IMG/VR virus record: IMGVR_UViG_2693429623_000007
Reading direction: 5' to 3' (one strand)
Length of the DNA stretch: 7,648 bases
DNA from: a virus
Lineage: Duplodnaviria > Heunggongvirae > Uroviricota > Caudoviricetes
The notes beneath the pieces were generated by a model. It was not told where the DNA came from and ran no database searches. It worked only from the letters and a program-made list of their open reading frames with translations. A program made the translations under genes and the position numbers. This document shows positions 1 through 6,823 of the stretch, piece by piece (positions within the stretch are counted from its first letter, which is position 1; every line of letters starts with the position of its first letter).

Positions 1-155
1 ACCTGGACAATATCCTGAAAGCACCACTGGATGCGCTGACGCATGCCGGACTACTCATAGACGACGAGCAGTTTGATGAAATCAATATTGTGCGCGGTCA
101 GCTCGTTCCTGGGGGGCGGCTGGGCGTGAAGATTTACAAAATTGAGAGTGAGTGA
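1..155 (+). CDS. rusA: Holliday junction resolvase RusA, 3' end (5' partial; starts upstream of window)
   Basis: Frame from nt 3 translates to LDNILKAPLDALTHAGLLIDDEQFDEINIVRGQLVPGGRLGVKIYKIESE*, stop TGA 153-155. Matches the C-terminal region of E. coli RusA as I recall it (DLDNL..DAL..AG...DD...GGRL); recall-based, not searched. Confidence 0.8.
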   Translation, partial: LDNILKAPLDALTHAGLLIDDEQFDEINIVRGQLVPGGRLGVKIYKIESE

Positions 156-706
156 TCGTAAATATGATATATCCGGAAATTACAGGCAAAAGCGGCGAGC
201 ATTTACGTCTAAAAACGCTGGAAGCCGTCTGGATCCAGGGGAAATTACGGATGTGGGGGCGTTGGTCGTATATAGGTGGTGGCAAACCAGGAAATATGTT
301 CAATCAGTTGCTGGCATCCAAAAAACTGACAAAAACCGCGGTCAATGAAGCCCTGCGTAGAATCAGGGAGTCAGGGATTGATAAACCAGAGCTGGAAGCA
401 TTCTTGCGAGAGATGATCGCTGGCAGACAGAAGAGCTGGTTGTCTCACTGTACTGATGCAGAGGCGTTACGCATTGATGGGGTGATAAGTAAAGCGCTTG
501 CACGTTATCCTGGATTGATTGATATCCTGCGGCAAAGGTACGAAGGGCGGGGGATGAGTAAACGCAAAATGGCTGAATTGTTGAATGAGGTGCACCCGGA
601 ATGGTGTTTTAGTACATGCGAAAAGCGAATTGCTAATTGGTTGGCTGTTGCTGAATATGCGCTATACATCCCTATGCGAGAATCGTTTGCTCAAAAAATG
701 TCTTGA
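152..706 (+). CDS. Putative late-gene antiterminator Q (non-lambda Q family), assigned mainly by synteny
   Basis: 184-aa ORF directly after rusA (GTG 152 overlaps the rusA stop as GTGA; alternative ATG at 164), followed by a promoter-like element and an intrinsic terminator. Contains a W-G-x-W stretch (LRMWGRWS) reminiscent of DLP12-type Q proteins. Family call is uncertain. Confidence 0.55.
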   Translation: MIVNMIYPEITGKSGEHLRLKTLEAVWIQGKLRMWGRWSYIGGGKPGNMFNQLLASKKLTKTAVNEALRRIRESGIDKPELEAFLREMIAGRQKSWLSHCTDAEALRIDGVISKALARYPGLIDILRQRYEGRGMSKRKMAELLNEVHPEWCFSTCEKRIANWLAVAEYALYIPMRESFAQKMS

Positions 707-731
707 TTTTTTACGCATAAACTGTTTCAAT
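703..731 (+). promoter_or_regulatory. Candidate late promoter (pR'-like) downstream of the Q-like gene
   Basis: TTGATT (703-708), 17-nt spacer, TTCAAT (726-731) preceded by TG at 723-724 (extended -10 like). Lies about 60 nt upstream of an intrinsic terminator, the arrangement expected for pR'/tR'. Confidence 0.4.
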
Positions 732-790
732 CCAGCTACGCTTCGCAAAGCTATACCGCGAGGCGAATAGCAGACATGGACACCTGAAAG

Positions 791-814
791 AACCCGCTTT
801 ATGCGGGTTTTTTT
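791..814 (+). terminator. Rho-independent terminator (tR'-like)
   Basis: Stem cccgc (793-797), loop tttat, stem gcggg (803-807), then seven T's (808-814). Confidence 0.7.
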
Positions 815-937
815 GTGCCCGAAAAGCGGTACAGGACGTTAAATGCGCTGGTGGTTGCGAATGCCGGTCTTTCAGCTTGCTGGCTTTTTCGACAAGAGGT
901 ATTGGTATGTCACGTTAACCGGAAAAGGGAAAAAGGC

Positions 938-1135
938 ATGCTAAAACAGCAGGATATGACCGAAACCGCCAGAGTGGTGTTTAATGAATTAAGCGTCACC
1001 GAACCGGCGACCGTCGGGGAAATTGCGCAGAATACTTACCTTTCACGCGAACGCTGCCAGTTAATCCTGACCCAGCTTGTTATGGCGGGTCTGGCAGATT
1101 ATCAGTTCGGTTGTTACAGACGCCTTCCGCAGTGA
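938..1135 (+). CDS. Small hypothetical protein (65 aa), possible helix-turn-helix DNA-binding protein; allele 1
   Basis: ATG 938 preceded by purine-rich aaaagggaaaaagg. The longer track ORF from 815 would start inside the terminator region, so the internal ATG is preferred. Product MLKQQDMTETARVVFNELSVTEPATVGEIAQNTYLSRERCQLILTQLVMAGLADYQFGCYRRLPQ; the stretch ATVGEIAQNTYLSRERCQLILTQL looks like an HTH. A near-identical allele is at 1826-2023. Confidence 0.6.
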   Translation: MLKQQDMTETARVVFNELSVTEPATVGEIAQNTYLSRERCQLILTQLVMAGLADYQFGCYRRLPQ

Positions 1136-1144
1136 AGGCTTTTT
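1122..1144 (+). terminator. Rho-independent terminator overlapping the stop codon of the 65-aa gene
   Basis: Stem gccttc (1122-1127), loop cgcagt, stem gaaggc (1134-1139), then five T's (1140-1144). The same structure recurs at about 2009-2033 and 2201-2223. Confidence 0.5.
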
Positions 1145-1184
1145 AATTTGTGGTAATGGGCGGCTGGTGGGTGTTAGCGGCNTC

Positions 1185-1606: not shown

Positions 1607-1634
1607 TTGATTTTTCCGGAATCTGTGGTAAATT
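1607..1634 (+). promoter_or_regulatory. Lambda-like late promoter pR'
   Basis: TTGATT (1607-1612), 16-nt spacer, TAAATT (1629-1634). The downstream text ggtaaattcgtcataacgatggg closely resembles the lambda pR' initial transcribed region (GGTAAATTTGACTCAACGATGGG, from memory). Confidence 0.65.
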
Positions 1635-1681: not shown

Positions 1682-1706
1682 AACCCGCCGCCGAGCGGGT
1701 TTTTTA
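1682..1706 (+). terminator. Rho-independent terminator tR' (lambda-like)
   Basis: Stem cccgc (1684-1688), loop cgccga, stem gcggg (1695-1699), then six T's (1700-1705); about 45 nt after the predicted pR' start. Confidence 0.7.
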
Positions 1707-1735
1707 TGACTGAAATCGCGTCAGTACAGTAAACG

Positions 1736-2112
1736 CGCTGGTGGCGGTGAATACCTGTCTTTCAGCTTGCTGGCTTTTTCGACAAGAGTTATTGGTGTGT
1801 CACGTTAACCGGAAAAGGAAAAGACATGCTAAAACAGCAGGATATGACAGAAACCGCCAGAGTGGTGTTTAATGAATTAAGCGTCACCGAACCGGCGACC
1901 GTCGGGGAAATTGCGCAGAATACTTACCTTTCACGCGAACGCTGCCAGTTAATACTGACCCAGCTGGTTATGGCGGGTCTGGCAGACTATCAGTTCGGTT
2001 GTTACAGACGCCTTCCGCAGTGAAGGCTTTTTTATTTGTGGTAAATGGGCGGCTGGTGGGTGTTAGGGGCACCCACCAGCCATCTGCTCATGCGTTGGGT
2101 TCACAAGCAAAC
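1736..2112 (+). repeat. Copy 2 of the duplicated unit containing the 65-aa gene
   Basis: Diverged allele of 848-1181; runs into the N gap at 2113. Confidence 0.8.
1826..2023 (+). CDS. Small hypothetical protein (65 aa), HTH-like; allele 2
   Basis: The track gives the same 65-aa protein as 938-1135; the DNA differs at scattered positions, implying synonymous changes. Same terminator at its stop. Confidence 0.6.
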   Translation: MLKQQDMTETARVVFNELSVTEPATVGEIAQNTYLSRERCQLILTQLVMAGLADYQFGCYRRLPQ

Positions 2113-2179: not shown

Positions 2180-2302
2180 ATCAGTTCGGTTGTTACAGAC
2201 GCCTTCCGCAGTGAAGGCTTTTTAATTTGTGGTAATGGGCGGCTGGTGGGTGTTAGCGGCACCTGCCAGCCATCTGCTCATGCGTTGGGGTCACAAGCAA
2301 AC
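2180..2302 (+). repeat. Copy 3 (partial) of the duplicated unit: last 11 codons of the 65-aa gene plus downstream
   Basis: atcagttcggttgttacagacgccttccgcagtgaaggc... matches 1102-1181 and 1989-2112. Confidence 0.8.
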
Positions 2303-2364
2303 CTCAGGCCCATCTGCTTTGCGCAAAAGCGGTATGAGCCTATCAGAGAAGTGCTTATTGATCT

Positions 2365-3070
2365 ATGGCCAATACTGTAAAAATATCCAGTTGTGAGTTA
2401 ATCAACGCTGATTGCCTGGAATTTATCCAGACCTTACCGGAAAATTCTGTCGATCTGATAGTCACAGACCCGCCATACTTTAAAGTGAAGCCCGAGGGCT
2501 GGGATAACCAGTGGGAGGGCGACGATGATTACCTGAAATGGCTGGACCAGTGTCTGGCGCAGTTCTGGCGGGTGCTGAAACCTGCCGGAAGTCTTTACCT
2601 GTTCTGTGGTCATCGCCTGGCATCTGATATCGAAATCATGATGCGTGAACGCTTCAGTGTGCTGAACCATATTATCTGGGCGAAGCCGTCCGGACGCTGG
2701 AACGGATGCAACAAGGAAAGCCTGCGGGCGTATTTCCCCGCCACAGAGCGCATTCTGTTCGCGGAACATTATCAGGGGCCGTATCGTCCGAAAGATGCCG
2801 GGTATGCGGCGAAGGGCAGTGCACTGAAACAGCATGTGATGGCCCCGCTGATTTCTTACTTTCGTGATGCGCGAGCTGCCCTGGGGATAACGGCAAAACA
2901 GATTGCAGATGCCACAGGAAAGAAAAACATGGTGTCGCACTGGTTCAGTGCCGGTCAGTGGCAGTTGCCGAATGAAAGCGATTATCTGAAATTACAGGCG
3001 CTGTTTGCCCGGGTGGCAGAAGAGAAGCATCGGCGTGGTGAACTGGAAAAGCTCCACCACCAGCTGGTGG
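2365..3070 (+). CDS. DNA N6-adenine methyltransferase, beta class, N-terminal 235 codons (3' end interrupted by N gap)
   Basis: MANTVKISSCELINADCLEFIQTLPENSVDLIVTDPPYF...; catalytic motif IV DPPY at 2467-2478. Track ORF 2365-3102 runs through the gap. The gene continues in the segment 3694-4037. Confidence 0.8.
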
Positions 3071-3081
3071 NNNNNNNNNNN
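3071..3081. other. Assembly gap (11 N)
   Basis: Run of n inside the methyltransferase reading frame. Confidence 1.
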
Positions 3082-3150
3082 TGGCACAGGGGCGCGAGCT
3101 AAAACAGCACGTCATGGCCCCGCTGATTTCTTACTTTCGTGATGCGCGTA
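3082..3150 (+). pseudogene. Isolated 69-bp internal fragment of a divergent methyltransferase allele, between two N runs
   Basis: Matches 2811-2878 with several substitutions in the first 30 bp; the segment ...catggccccgctgatttcttactttcgtgatgcgcg is shared. Confidence 0.6.
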
Positions 3151-3179
3151 NNNNNNNNNNNNNNNNNNNNNNNNNNNNN
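3151..3179. other. Assembly gap (29 N)
   Basis: Run of n. Confidence 1.
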
Positions 3180-4037
3180 GCGCAGTTCTGGCGGGTGCTG
3201 AAACCTGCCGGAAGTCTTTACCTGTTCTGTGGTCATCGCCTGGCATCTGATATCGAAATCATGATGCGTGAACGCTTCAGTGTGCTGAACCATATTATCT
3301 GGGCGAAGCCGTCCGGACGCTGGAACGGATGCAACAAGGAAAGCCTGCGGGCGTATTTCCCCGCCACAGAGCGCATTCTGTTCGCGGAACATTATCAGGG
3401 GCCGTATCGTCCGAAAGATGCCGGGTATGCGGCGAAGGGCAGTGCACTGAAACAGCATGTGATGGCCCCGCTGATTTCTTACTTTCGTGATGCGCGAGCT
3501 GCCCTGGGGATAACGGCAAAACAGATTGCAGATGCCACAGGAAAGAAAAACATGGTGTCGCACTGGTTCAGTGCCGGTCAGTGGCAGTTGCCGAATGAAA
3601 GCGATTATCTGAAATTACAGGCGCTGTTTGCCCGGGTGGCAGAAGAGAAGCATCGGCGTGGTGAACTGGAAAAGCTCCACCACCAGCTGGTGGATACGTA
3701 TACCTCACTGAACCGGCAGTATGCGGAGCTGCTGAGTGAATATAAACATCTGCGGCGGTATTTTGGCGTGACGGTGCAGGTGCCGTATACCGATGTGTGG
3801 ACGCATAAACCGGTGCAGTTCTATCCCGGGAAACATCCGTGCGAAAAACCGGCAGAAATGCTGCAGCAGATAATCAACGCGAGCAGTCGTCCGGGAGACC
3901 TGGTTGCAGATTTTTTTATGGGTTCAGGTTCAACGGTAAAAGCGGCGATGGCACTGGGGCGTTGTGCGATTGGTGTTGAGCTGGAGACCGGACGTTTTGA
4001 ACAGACAGTCAGGGAAGTTCAGGATTTAATCGTTTGA
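3180..4037 (+). CDS. DNA N6-adenine methyltransferase, beta class, codon approx. 65 to stop (5' truncated by N gap)
   Basis: 3180-3693 appears identical to 2557-3070 (514 bp). The C-terminal part carries the AdoMet-binding motif I, FFMGSGST. Motif IV before motif I is the beta-class order. Stop TGA 4035-4037. Reconstructed full gene is about 349 aa. Confidence 0.8.
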   Translation, partial: AQFWRVLKPAGSLYLFCGHRLASDIEIMMRERFSVLNHIIWAKPSGRWNGCNKESLRAYFPATERILFAEHYQGPYRPKDAGYAAKGSALKQHVMAPLISYFRDARAALGITAKQIADATGKKNMVSHWFSAGQWQLPNESDYLKLQALFARVAEEKHRRGELEKLHHQLVDTYTSLNRQYAELLSEYKHLRRYFGVTVQVPYTDVWTHKPVQFYPGKHPCEKPAEMLQQIINASSRPGDLVADFFMGSGSTVKAAMALGRCAIGVELETGRFEQTVREVQDLIV

Positions 4038-4098: not shown

Positions 4099-4395
4099 CT
4101 GCGGCGGTATTTTGGCGTGACGGTGCAGGTGCCGTATACCGATGTGTGGACGCATAAACCGGTGCAGTTCTATCCCGGGAAACATCCGTGCGAAAAACCG
4201 GCAGAAATGCTGCAGCAGATAATCAGCGCTAGCAGTCGTCCGGGTGACCTGATTGCAGATTTTTTCATGGGGTTGGGTTCGACAGTGAAAGCGGCACTGG
4301 CGCTCGGGCGTCGTGCAATTGGCGTTGAGCTGGAGACTGAACGTTTTGAGCAGACGGTTCGGGAAGTACAGGATTTAGTCAGCCAGAACGGATGA
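4099..4395 (+). CDS. Methyltransferase C-terminal fragment, second allele (5' truncated at the junction n at 4098)
   Basis: In-frame from 4099. Product ...VTVQVPYTDVWTHKPVQFYPGKHPCEKPAEMLQQIISASSRPGDLIADFFMGLGSTVKAALALGRRAIGVELETERFEQTVREVQDLVSQNG* differs from the 3751-4037 allele by scattered substitutions and a 5-aa longer tail. Confidence 0.7.
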   Translation: MRRYFGVTVQVPYTDVWTHKPVQFYPGKHPCEKPAEMLQQIISASSRPGDLIADFFMGLGSTVKAALALGRRAIGVELETERFEQTVREVQDLVSQNG

Positions 4396-4435: not shown

Positions 4436-4511
4436 GGCCCTTTAGCTCAGTGGTGAGAGCGAGCGACTCATAATCGCCAGGTCGCTGGTTCAAATCCAGC
4501 AAGGGCCACCA
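4436..4511 (+). tRNA. tRNA-Ile2/Met, anticodon CAU (ileX/ileZ-like)
   Basis: Hand-folded cloverleaf: acceptor GGCCCTT/AAGGGCC, D arm GCTC-AGTGGTGA-GAGC, anticodon loop CTCATAA, T arm GCTGG-TTCAAAT-CCAGC, discriminator A, encoded CCA. Resembles E. coli ileX as recalled. Confidence 0.85.
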
Positions 4512-4518
4512 TCACATA

Positions 4519-4595
4519 CCGCCATTAACTCATCAGGATAGAGCGCCAGCCTTCGAAGCTGGTTGCGCGGGGTTCGAGTCCTCGATGGCGGTCCA
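4519..4595 (+). tRNA. tRNA-Arg, anticodon UCG
   Basis: Acceptor CCGCCAT/ATGGCGG (7 bp), anticodon stem CCAGC/GCTGG with loop CTTCGAA, T loop TTCGAGT, encoded CCA. The D stem has one A-C mismatch. Confidence 0.75.
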
Positions 4596-4608
4596 TTATC
4601 TGCATCAT

Positions 4609-4685
4609 GCGTTGTTAGCTCAGCCGGACAGAGCAATTGCCTTCTAAGCAATCGGTCACTGGTTCGAATCCAGTACAACGCGCCA
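4609..4685 (+). tRNA. tRNA-Arg, anticodon UCU
   Basis: Acceptor GCGTTGT/ACAACGC, D arm GCTC-AGCCGGACA-GAGC, anticodon stem ATTGC/GCAAT with loop CTTCTAA, T arm ACTGG-TTCGAAT-CCAGT, encoded CCA. Confidence 0.85.
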
Positions 4686-4860: not shown

Positions 4861-5286
4861 ATGTTTGGTATTTTCAAAAAGAAAACCCGCAAGGCCATTA
4901 CCGAGGTGAAGAAGATGGAGAACCGTGACGCAGTGGAGGCGACCGTCTGGGGCGCGTACTCCATTGCATACGCTGACGGCACCTGTGACGCGAAAGAAAT
5001 CGCGGTACTGGAAAAAACCATTGCAGCACTTCCTGTCTTTGCGCCGTTCTCCGGTGAGATTGCACAAATGAGTGCAAATATCCGCGCCCGTTATGAAGCG
5101 TCGCCGCGTTCTGCCAATGCCGAAGCTCTTCGTCAGCTGGCTGATGTTGCCGGTACTGATGATGCAGTTAATGTGCTGTGCCTGTGTCTGGATATCGCTG
5201 ACCAGGACGGTATCGCTCAGGAAGAAGAAGCGCAACTGAAGAAAATTGCGCAGGCGCTGCAGTTGCCGCTGGAGCAGTACCTGTGA
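4861..5286 (+). CDS. TerB-like (tellurite-resistance TerB family) domain protein, 141 aa
   Basis: ATG 4861 with aaaaggaaaag upstream. Two internal half-repeats of the form A-x-A-DG...E...L..IA.AL (AYADGTCDAKEIAVLEKTIAAL and DIADQDGIAQEEEAQLKKIAQAL), the arrangement I recall for TerB. Family call is from memory. Confidence 0.55.
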   Translation: MFGIFKKKTRKAITEVKKMENRDAVEATVWGAYSIAYADGTCDAKEIAVLEKTIAALPVFAPFSGEIAQMSANIRARYEASPRSANAEALRQLADVAGTDDAVNVLCLCLDIADQDGIAQEEEAQLKKIAQALQLPLEQYL

Positions 5287-6599: not shown

Positions 6600-6823
6600 N
6601 NNNNNNNNNNNNNNNNNNNNNNNNNNNNNNNNNNNNNNNNNNNNNNNNNNNNNNNNNNNNNNNNNNNNNNNNNNNNNNNNNNNNNNNNNNNNNNNNNNNN
6701 NNNNNNNNNNNNNNNNNNNNNNNNNNNNNNNNNNNNNNNNNNNNNNNNNNNNNNNNNNNNNNNNNNNNNNNNNNNNNNNNNNNNNNNNNNNNNNNNNNNN
6801 NNNNNNNNNNNNNNNNNNNNNNN
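6600..6823. other. Assembly gap (224 N)
   Basis: Run of n between the endolysin terminator and the lipoprotein gene. Confidence 1.

Follow-up and report, generated by a model that had tools for sequence, protein, structure and literature searches.

The DNA analysed was a 7,648-nucleotide stretch (the window) from IMG/VR virus record IMGVR_UViG_2693429623_000007 (Duplodnaviria; Heunggongvirae; Uroviricota; Caudoviricetes). The subject of the analysis was a 65-codon gene, present there in two alleles, which followed the late terminator tR' and was predicted to encode a small winged-helix protein. The window represented the late-control region of a lambdoid prophage. It was not one contiguous natural sequence, but a set of alternative alleles joined end to end, with the junctions marked by N-runs or single n's at 1182, 2103-2179, 3071-3081, 3151-3179, 4098 and 6600-6823. 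The elements were arranged in the order of the end of rusA, a Q gene of type A, a terminator, the 65-codon open reading frame (ORF), a 5'-truncated Q gene of type B, a terminator, the 65-codon ORF again, a third copy of the ORF 3' end (2180-2214), a methylase gene, three tRNAs, a TerB-like gene, two holins and an M15 endolysin. Two Q modules, three winged-helix 3' ends and several methylase fragments were present. Since the alleles were concatenated, the two 65-codon ORFs were regarded as versions of one locus and not as a tandem pair, and, because the pieces were joined by N-runs, none of the apparent duplications was taken as a tandem repeat in a genome. The gene and its ribosome-binding signal were placed as follows.

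938-1135, plus strand: winged-helix gene, allele A, 65 amino acids (aa); the same gene as phiP27 L23 and SfV orf47; PHROG 331.
1826-2023, plus strand: winged-helix gene, allele B, with a protein identical to that of allele A.
925-930, plus strand: Shine-Dalgarno-like AAGGGA, 7 nt before the ATG of allele A, read from the sequence.

An earlier first-pass annotation of this DNA had stated that the two copies gave the same translation from differing DNA, and this was confirmed. The alleles differed at four positions, all four of them third-codon and synonymous, and the 65-aa protein was shared. When orthologues from Escherichia albertii, Kluyvera, Salmonella, Klebsiella, Buttiauxella and Enterobacter were compared, the dN/dS ratio was 0.03-0.13 where computable, with dN of 0.007-0.2 and the synonymous sites saturated or nearly so. 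The start codon and the frame were kept across genera, and an AAGG or AGG Shine-Dalgarno motif stood about 7-12 nt 5' of the ATG in most orthologous loci; beyond this motif, the 25 nt upstream that were inspected at each locus varied between genera. The pattern of substitution identifies the ORF as a genuine protein-coding gene under strong purifying selection.

The alternative of a chance ORF inside a conserved non-coding late leader might be suggested by its shortness and by the many database entries that disagree on its length, giving 63-106 aa. It was judged practically untenable, as the substitution pattern already refuted it, and the conserved frame, start and Shine-Dalgarno motif together with a confident fold prediction pointed the same way. 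The extended 106-aa form (815-1135), which is called in many databases, was also ruled out, since a 2-bp indel in allele B breaks the extension.

The family was narrow, with 334 clusters at 90% identity and 85 at 50% identity after a search of 1.84 billion proteins. Named matches and genome loci belonged almost entirely to Enterobacterales, with E. coli, Proteus, Providencia, Mixta and Plesiomonas marking the range; the named clusters among those listed at 90% identity came from Enterobacteriaceae. DNA of the gene was detected in 2141 of 5426 complete E. coli genomes (~39%), often several times and as many as seven times in one genome. Known phages already have the gene annotated at this place, though it is uncharacterised: phiP27 L23 (P27p23), SfV orf47 and mEp460 gp52 are the same gene, with protein identities of 100%, 94% and 53%, respectively. 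The gene order is also the same in these three phages and in Morganella IME1369_02. In the first three, Q, a terminator, the winged-helix gene and a DNA methyltransferase gene are followed by lysis genes, with or without tRNAs and stx between. SfV is annotated as Q, terminator, orf47, the orf48 methyltransferase, terminator and S R Rz, and phiP27 carries tRNAs and stx2e after the methylase. A literature search by phage gene names and leader strings returned annotation-level mentions only and no functional study of the gene; a 2022 comparative paper mentions the layout of Q, winged-helix gene and methylase in passing (PMC9729726).

The control elements upstream of both alleles were as follows.

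152-706, plus strand: Q antiterminator type A, 184 aa, DUF1133 / Phage_antitermQ (PF06576, E 5.6e-103; PF06530, E 1.8e-06).
703-731, plus strand: candidate late promoter pR' of allele A, with -35 TTGATT (703-708), a 17-nt spacer and -10 TTCAAT (726-731).
787-814, plus strand: tR' of allele A, hairpin AACCCGC-TTTAT-GCGGGTT followed by T7 (stem and T-run at 791-814).
1183-1601 (approximately), plus strand: Q type B, PF03589 with a DnaJ-like zinc finger (E 8.7e-32), 5'-truncated by the junction; full-length relatives have 259-340 aa.
1607-1634, plus strand: candidate pR' of allele B, with -35 TTGATT (1607-1612), a 16-nt spacer and an extended -10 TGnTAAATT (1626-1634).
1682-1707, plus strand: tR' of allele B, found by terminator scan, a 7-bp stem (1682-1701) followed by T6.

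The tR' of allele A had a predicted folding energy of -23.5 kcal/mol (z -4.35), and none of 200 shuffled sequences was as stable; the consensus scan missed it because A/T pairs run the stem into the T-tract. The ORF started about 120 nt after tR' in both alleles. Across ~31 of 36 independent loci, a strong terminator ended 85-130 nt before the ATG. The gene was always the first ORF after tR', in agreement with the earlier claim that it comes first among the late genes. The ORF 5' of the terminator was Q in 8 of 10 loci sampled and belonged to PF03589, PF06323 or PF06530/DUF1133, and phiP27 carried a further Q variant. The statement that the same protein follows both Q types was therefore extended, as three unrelated Pfam Q families were found in front of it. 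A 184-aa Q, equal in length to Q type A, has been described upstream of the same two genes (PMC9729726).

The gene lay on the same strand as Q and 3' of it, behind a pR'-like promoter and tR', and HK620, SfV and N15 annotate a promoter and/or a terminator at equivalent positions. A consensus scan of positions 600-2400 gave no sigma-70-like promoter, a result limited by the fact that the same scan also misses pR'; both candidate pR' elements were read by eye. As the gene thus appeared to have no promoter of its own, it would be transcribed from pR', with low read-through of tR' in lysogens and strong expression once Q acts. A late winged-helix gene driven by Q was considered quite probable.

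The earlier annotation had presented a first late gene ahead of any lysis gene as a departure from lambda. Such an arrangement proved to be ordinary: it is annotated in SfV, phiP27 and mEp460, it has a parallel in Gifsy-1, and the stretch between Q and the lysis genes is known in lambdoid phages as an accessory slot. In Gifsy-1, the regulatory genes isrK-orf45-anrP directly follow Q and tR' (PMC4825925). Gifsy-1 and the StxS system (PMC7547250) resemble the present locus in having a constitutive pR', a short RNA ending at tR' and regulatory genes right after tR' that are reached by read-through. However, the downstream genes of Gifsy-1 (orf45, antirepressor) are unrelated to those found here. 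The segment between pR' and tR' of allele A (740-813) gave an isrK-like match of 21.6 bits (E 0.25) against a gathering score of 50, which is sub-threshold. A transcript starting near 740 from the candidate pR' would fit this weak match and would be a short constitutive RNA like IsrK or StxS.

The structure of the protein was predicted by AlphaFold2 from a 25-sequence alignment. A canonical minimal winged helix of 65 residues was obtained with a pLDDT of 90.5, comprising a helix at 4-16, a short strand, helices at 26-33 and 37-49, and a beta-hairpin wing at 53-62. This followed the alpha1-beta1-alpha2-alpha3-beta2-wing-beta3 topology, so that the earlier description of the product as HTH-like, for which structure prediction had been proposed as a check, held at the level of the fold. 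Arginines clustered in two places, the N-terminal end of helix 3 and the wing. The RCQLILTQL segment of helix 3 was invariant down to the 41%-identical Plesiomonas homologue, which points to one conserved binding partner.

Assignment of the protein to a described family was less straightforward. PHROG 331 was matched at E 1e-37, and its function is listed as 'unknown function'; no NCBIfam model matched, and searches of the PDB with the protein sequence and profile gave nothing significant (best E 0.24-0.63). Membership of MarR was rejected, since the score was sub-threshold (MarR_2, 14.7 bits against a cut-off of 27) and the flanking dimerisation helices of MarR (~140 aa) were absent from the model. 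The TrmB family, used in the PGAP name 'TrmB family regulator', was rejected as well: the best Pfam HTH match (TrmB, PF01978) reached 18 bits (E 0.0026) against a cut-off of 25.6, and the protein is a single 65-aa domain with no C-terminal sugar-binding effector domain. From TrmB, MarR and IclR-type domains in general, it differs in consisting of 65 aa only, in having no dimerisation or effector domain, and in its sub-threshold Pfam scores and acidic isoelectric point (pI). The Zalpha signature consists of Asn and Tyr on helix 3 and Pro-Pro-x-Trp in the wing; these residues were absent from the protein, and Zalpha membership was excluded.

The gene downstream was the methylase, of which further fragments occurred in the window at 3082-3150 and 4099-4395.

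2365-4037, plus strand: beta-class N6-adenine DNA methyltransferase (PF01555), probably of the M.EcoGII type; a composite of allele fragments.

The motifs VTDPPYF and FFMGSGS were present in the DPPY ... FxGxG order of the beta class. The link to M.EcoGII runs through the enzyme of phage 1720a-02, to which the phiP27 orthologue is 87% identical and which has been described as 'very similar' to M.EcoGII (PMC5778455). M.EcoGII is a non-specific adenine methylase that is toxic if constitutively expressed, silent in the lysogen and active alone in vitro (PMC5778455).

Linkage between the winged-helix gene and the methylase was seen at over 90% of loci. Both genes were present in 77 of the 80 closest methylase loci on viral contigs, the remaining three being truncated, and 138 of 155 instances of the leader described below had the winged-helix gene on the 5' side and the methylase on the 3' side. 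In having a gene for a small HTH protein beside a DNA methyltransferase gene, the locus resembles the C proteins of restriction-modification systems. However, C proteins are of the Xre HTH type, bind C-boxes 5' of the C gene itself and come from systems that include an endonuclease, whereas here a winged helix is encoded, no endonuclease is present and expression appears to be driven by the late promoter.

The first-pass annotation had also placed a second terminator over the stop codon, insulating the gene.

1122-1150, plus strand: stop-codon hairpin P0, GCCTTC/GAAGGC followed by T5AAT3, the 5' stem of the methylase leader.

In all three copies (1122-1139, 2010-2027 and 2201-2218), the TGA stop lay in the loop of GCCTTC-CGCAGT-GAAGGC followed by T5-6. 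The form was that of an intrinsic terminator, with a 6-bp stem containing four GC pairs and a T5-T6 tract. The stem covaried across loci (GCCTTC/GAAGGC, GCCTCC/GGAGGC, CTGCC/GGCAG, CTCCGC/GCGGAG). A U-tract (at least 5 of 8) followed it in 113 of 211 loci, all of E. coli type, and was missing from most non-E. coli orthologues. Thus, the hairpin and T-run at the stop codon were real, but a simple gene insulator was not supported, as the hairpin is a covarying 5' stem of the leader and its U-tract is confined to E. coli-type alleles. The element AATGGGCG was always preceded by a hairpin, a pyrimidine-rich run and TGTGRA. The conserved CTGTGRA 5' of AATGGGCG was also able to pair with TGTTAYA, the Cys59-Tyr60 codons (2189-2233 and orthologues). 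As this pairing extends the stop-codon hairpin, both protein and RNA constraint may act on the last part of the coding sequence.

Between the stop codon and the methylase lay a leader of ~130 nt, whose parts were as follows.

1155-1181, plus strand: leader start, AATGGGCGGCTGGTGGGTG..., cut by the window junction at 1182.
2010-2101, plus strand: hairpin (2010-2027) and 5' half of the leader, with a perfect 12-bp P2 at 2052-2082; cut by an N-run.
2201-2364, plus strand: complete copy of hairpin and leader, running up to the methylase ATG.
2201-2218, plus strand: P0.
2234-2241, plus strand: AATGGGCG.
2241-2252 with 2260-2271, plus strand: P2.
2273-2282 with 2292-2301, plus strand: P3.
2314-2320 with 2326-2332, plus strand: P4.
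2307-2313 with 2334-2340, plus strand: P4ext.

The DNA at 2201-2364 was conserved to a higher degree than the coding sequence from E. coli to Plesiomonas. Compensatory changes were clear, for example in P2: E. albertii has GGCTGGTGGGTG/CACCCACCAGCC, one Proteus GACTGTAAAAGTG/CACCTTTACAGTC, a second Proteus GACAGTGAGGATG/CATCCCCGCTGTC and Plesiomonas GGCTGGTAAGTG/CATTTACCAGCC. Covariation was assessed with two explicit structure models on a 48-sequence MAFFT alignment, using slid partners and 500 shuffles as controls; these tests replaced a naive all-against-all column covariation scan because the scan was dominated by the split of the Proteus/Providencia clade. In the two models, 86.5% and 89.4% of cells were paired, compared with 29-50% in the slid controls, and two-sided changes occurred at 12 and 9 pairs, compared with 3-5. 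None of the 500 shuffles reached the observed values on nearly every measure. RNAalifold independently recovered P1alt, P2 and P4ext. G.U pairs were confined to the plus strand, which assigns the structure to the late transcript.

Two mutually exclusive long-range pairings were found, either ATGGG:CTCAT or TGGGC:GCCCA together with GGCCCAC:GTGAGCC, each compatible with 48 of 48 sequences, and these alternative pairings suggest a possible switch. A local hairpin ATCAG/CTGAT just 5' of the methylase ATG was rejected, being only 67-69% paired at two positions and broken by T132C in 12 of 48 sequences. In a search of Rfam 15 with the whole window and with the leader alone (E up to 10), the leader was unmatched and only tRNAs and chance matches were returned. 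The leader RNA appears to be undescribed and, in this respect, more novel than the winged-helix gene itself.

At the DNA level, the apex of P4 (2314-2332) was perfectly palindromic in six or more independent variants (AGCGCT, AACGTT, TGCGCA, TGTGCACA, ACGCGT and TGATCA), and the N15 version was GCGATGCGCATCGC; it was seen in the window and in the equivalents of L012, L018, L021, L154, L049, L241 and L244. A palindrome is needless for an RNA loop, which hints at a site for a dimeric protein, a kissing-loop dimer or a structure on both strands.

The leader also occurred at loci without the winged-helix gene, namely L073, L116, L085, N15, Klebsiella phage 48ST307 and Serratia OS31. In N15 (L241, 41229-41386), 48ST307 (L244) and OS31 (L243), it followed a promoter and/or a terminator and preceded a methylase; the 48ST307 genes next to it are annotated as phiKO2 homologues. 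At L073, L116, N15 and 48ST307, tR' itself supplied the hairpin before the leader, and in OS31 tR' lay ~110 nt upstream. A diverged leader was found between the late terminator and a holin, with no methylase, in HK620 (L240, 16346-16449) and in the viral contigs L049, L058 and L068. Because the leader occurs both with the methylase alone and with holins, it was ruled out as part of the winged-helix gene and was regarded as an element of the late operon and of the methylase. The winged-helix gene, in turn, appears to have been inserted between tR' and the leader.

These loci bear on the proposal that the protein acts as a translational switch of the Com/Mom kind, binding the leader RNA and opening or closing the methylase start region. 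The likeness to com-mom of phage Mu is that a small gene of regulatory size lies directly 5' of a toxic late DNA-modification gene, with RNA structure before its start. However, Com is a zinc finger and com overlaps mom, whereas here the protein is a winged helix that has just two Cys, and 229 nt separate its gene from that of the methylase, with no overlap, so that membership of a Com/Mom-type system was rejected. Relatives also have the methylase module without the winged-helix protein. Leader and methylase occur without the protein in N15, 48ST307, OS31, L073 and L116, with the leader intact where examined (L073), and a related leader precedes holins where neither gene is present. As the protein is acidic and the gap leaves no translational coupling, unlike in com-mom, such a switch was considered improbable.

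We proposed that the winged-helix gene is a Q-driven late gene whose product would be a small nucleic-acid-binding accessory acting with or on the late methylation cassette, for instance as a modulator of methylase expression or as a binder of the DNA that the methylase modifies. Most transcripts made in the lysogen would end at tR'. In E. coli-type alleles, the stop-codon hairpin would act as a second, weaker terminator that catches leaked transcripts before the toxic methylase; the same hairpin would also be the 5' stem preceding the leader, a role that tR' would take where the gene is absent. RNA polymerase modified by Q and made terminator-resistant would then read through both tR' and the stop-codon hairpin. 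The protein would not be essential for methylase expression, because N15, 48ST307, OS31 and some E. coli-like phages do without it. The combined proposal was regarded as moderately probable, while a functional coupling of the protein to the methylase was itself put forward only tentatively. The original observation is confirmed and its interpretation is partly supported.

Several points weigh against this proposal. Dependence on Q and the function of the terminators were inferred from position, and the stop-codon hairpin is weak (~-8.9 kcal/mol, z -1.07). The protein is acidic, with a pI of 5.1 and a net charge of -1.5, and every one of the Pfam matches (TrmB, MarR_2, DprA_WH and HTH_24) lies under its gathering score, so that nucleic-acid binding is not assured; of the earlier suggestion of a possible DNA-binding protein, the winged-helix fold stood, but DNA binding did not follow from it. 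The top Foldseek and profile matches were the non-DNA-binding winged-helix dimerisation domains of O-methyltransferases. The linkage to the methylase could merely reflect a physical proximity of 150 bp. The slot was empty or held an unrelated membrane protein of 220-231 aa in ~7% of loci, the replacing gene encoding a predicted membrane protein with no Pfam match at L142 (7797-8489), L055 (1490-2179) and L127 (3631-4290). In O157:H7 prophages, the winged-helix gene stands beside an AraC-type regulator instead of the methylase. In loci of this type (L239, 4501-5548, strain 2-6-2; L002), the leader is cut after P2 and the AraC regulator and three tRNAs replace the methylase. The winged-helix gene was frameshifted in L239, the O157:H7 copy examined. 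The 237-aa 'HTH protein' of O157 prophages was tried as a truncated methylase and rejected, since it is AraC-type (HTH_18) and has no similarity to the methylase.

Such a slot, which tolerates insertions and is empty at L073 and L116, would also suit an independent 'moron' transcription factor acting on a host or phage promoter and unrelated to the methylase. The O157:H7 prophages, which keep the gene next to the AraC-type regulator, are in line with this explanation, as are fold neighbours that are mostly transcription factors and the Gifsy-1 regulatory genes in the same position (PMC4825925). However, the methylase accompanies the gene at more than 90% of loci across a protein identity range of 41-100%, even though Q and lysis genes are exchanged in a mosaic fashion; in addition, the acidic protein lacks a dimerisation element, and no operator candidate came to light. 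A moron was therefore held to be rather unlikely.

The acidic pI and the methyltransferase dimerisation winged helices among the best Foldseek and profile matches could alternatively indicate a winged helix that binds protein or modified DNA, as a partner of the methylase, a reader of N6-methyladenine (m6A) DNA or an inhibitor of host defence. Tight linkage to an m6A writer would fit, and DpnI reads Gm6ATC through a winged helix. However, the protein showed no specific similarity to such readers or inhibitors, and the idea is purely speculative. It was further disfavoured by the activity of M.EcoGII alone in vitro (PMC5778455), and was considered highly improbable.

Two further features lay downstream in the window. 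The tRNA trio at 4436-4685, with anticodons CAT, TCG and TCT, was the ileZ-argN-argO-type set of Stx phages. It was followed at 4861-5286 by a gene for a TerB-domain protein (PF05099, E 8e-08), in the place where related phages carry stx.

A bolder possibility is that the winged-helix protein acts jointly with the leader RNA as a post-transcriptional safety switch on a toxic non-specific adenine methyltransferase. The protein would bind the leader, with its alternative pairings and palindromic apex, or hyper-methylated DNA, and so time or limit lytic methylation. It is a long shot; if true, a winged helix and a new RNA family would make up a Com/Mom-like logic directly 5' of stx in many Shiga-toxin phages. 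The leader itself is a candidate new cis-regulatory RNA family in lambdoid and N15-like phages. The cassette of tR', winged-helix gene, hairpin, leader and methylase would provide a concrete explanation for the silence of the methylase in lysogens. In many Stx2 phages, the winged-helix gene would be the first gene transcribed after Q acts, just 5' of the methylase, the tRNAs and stx, and it may therefore serve as a tractable handle on late-gene timing in Shiga-toxin phages.

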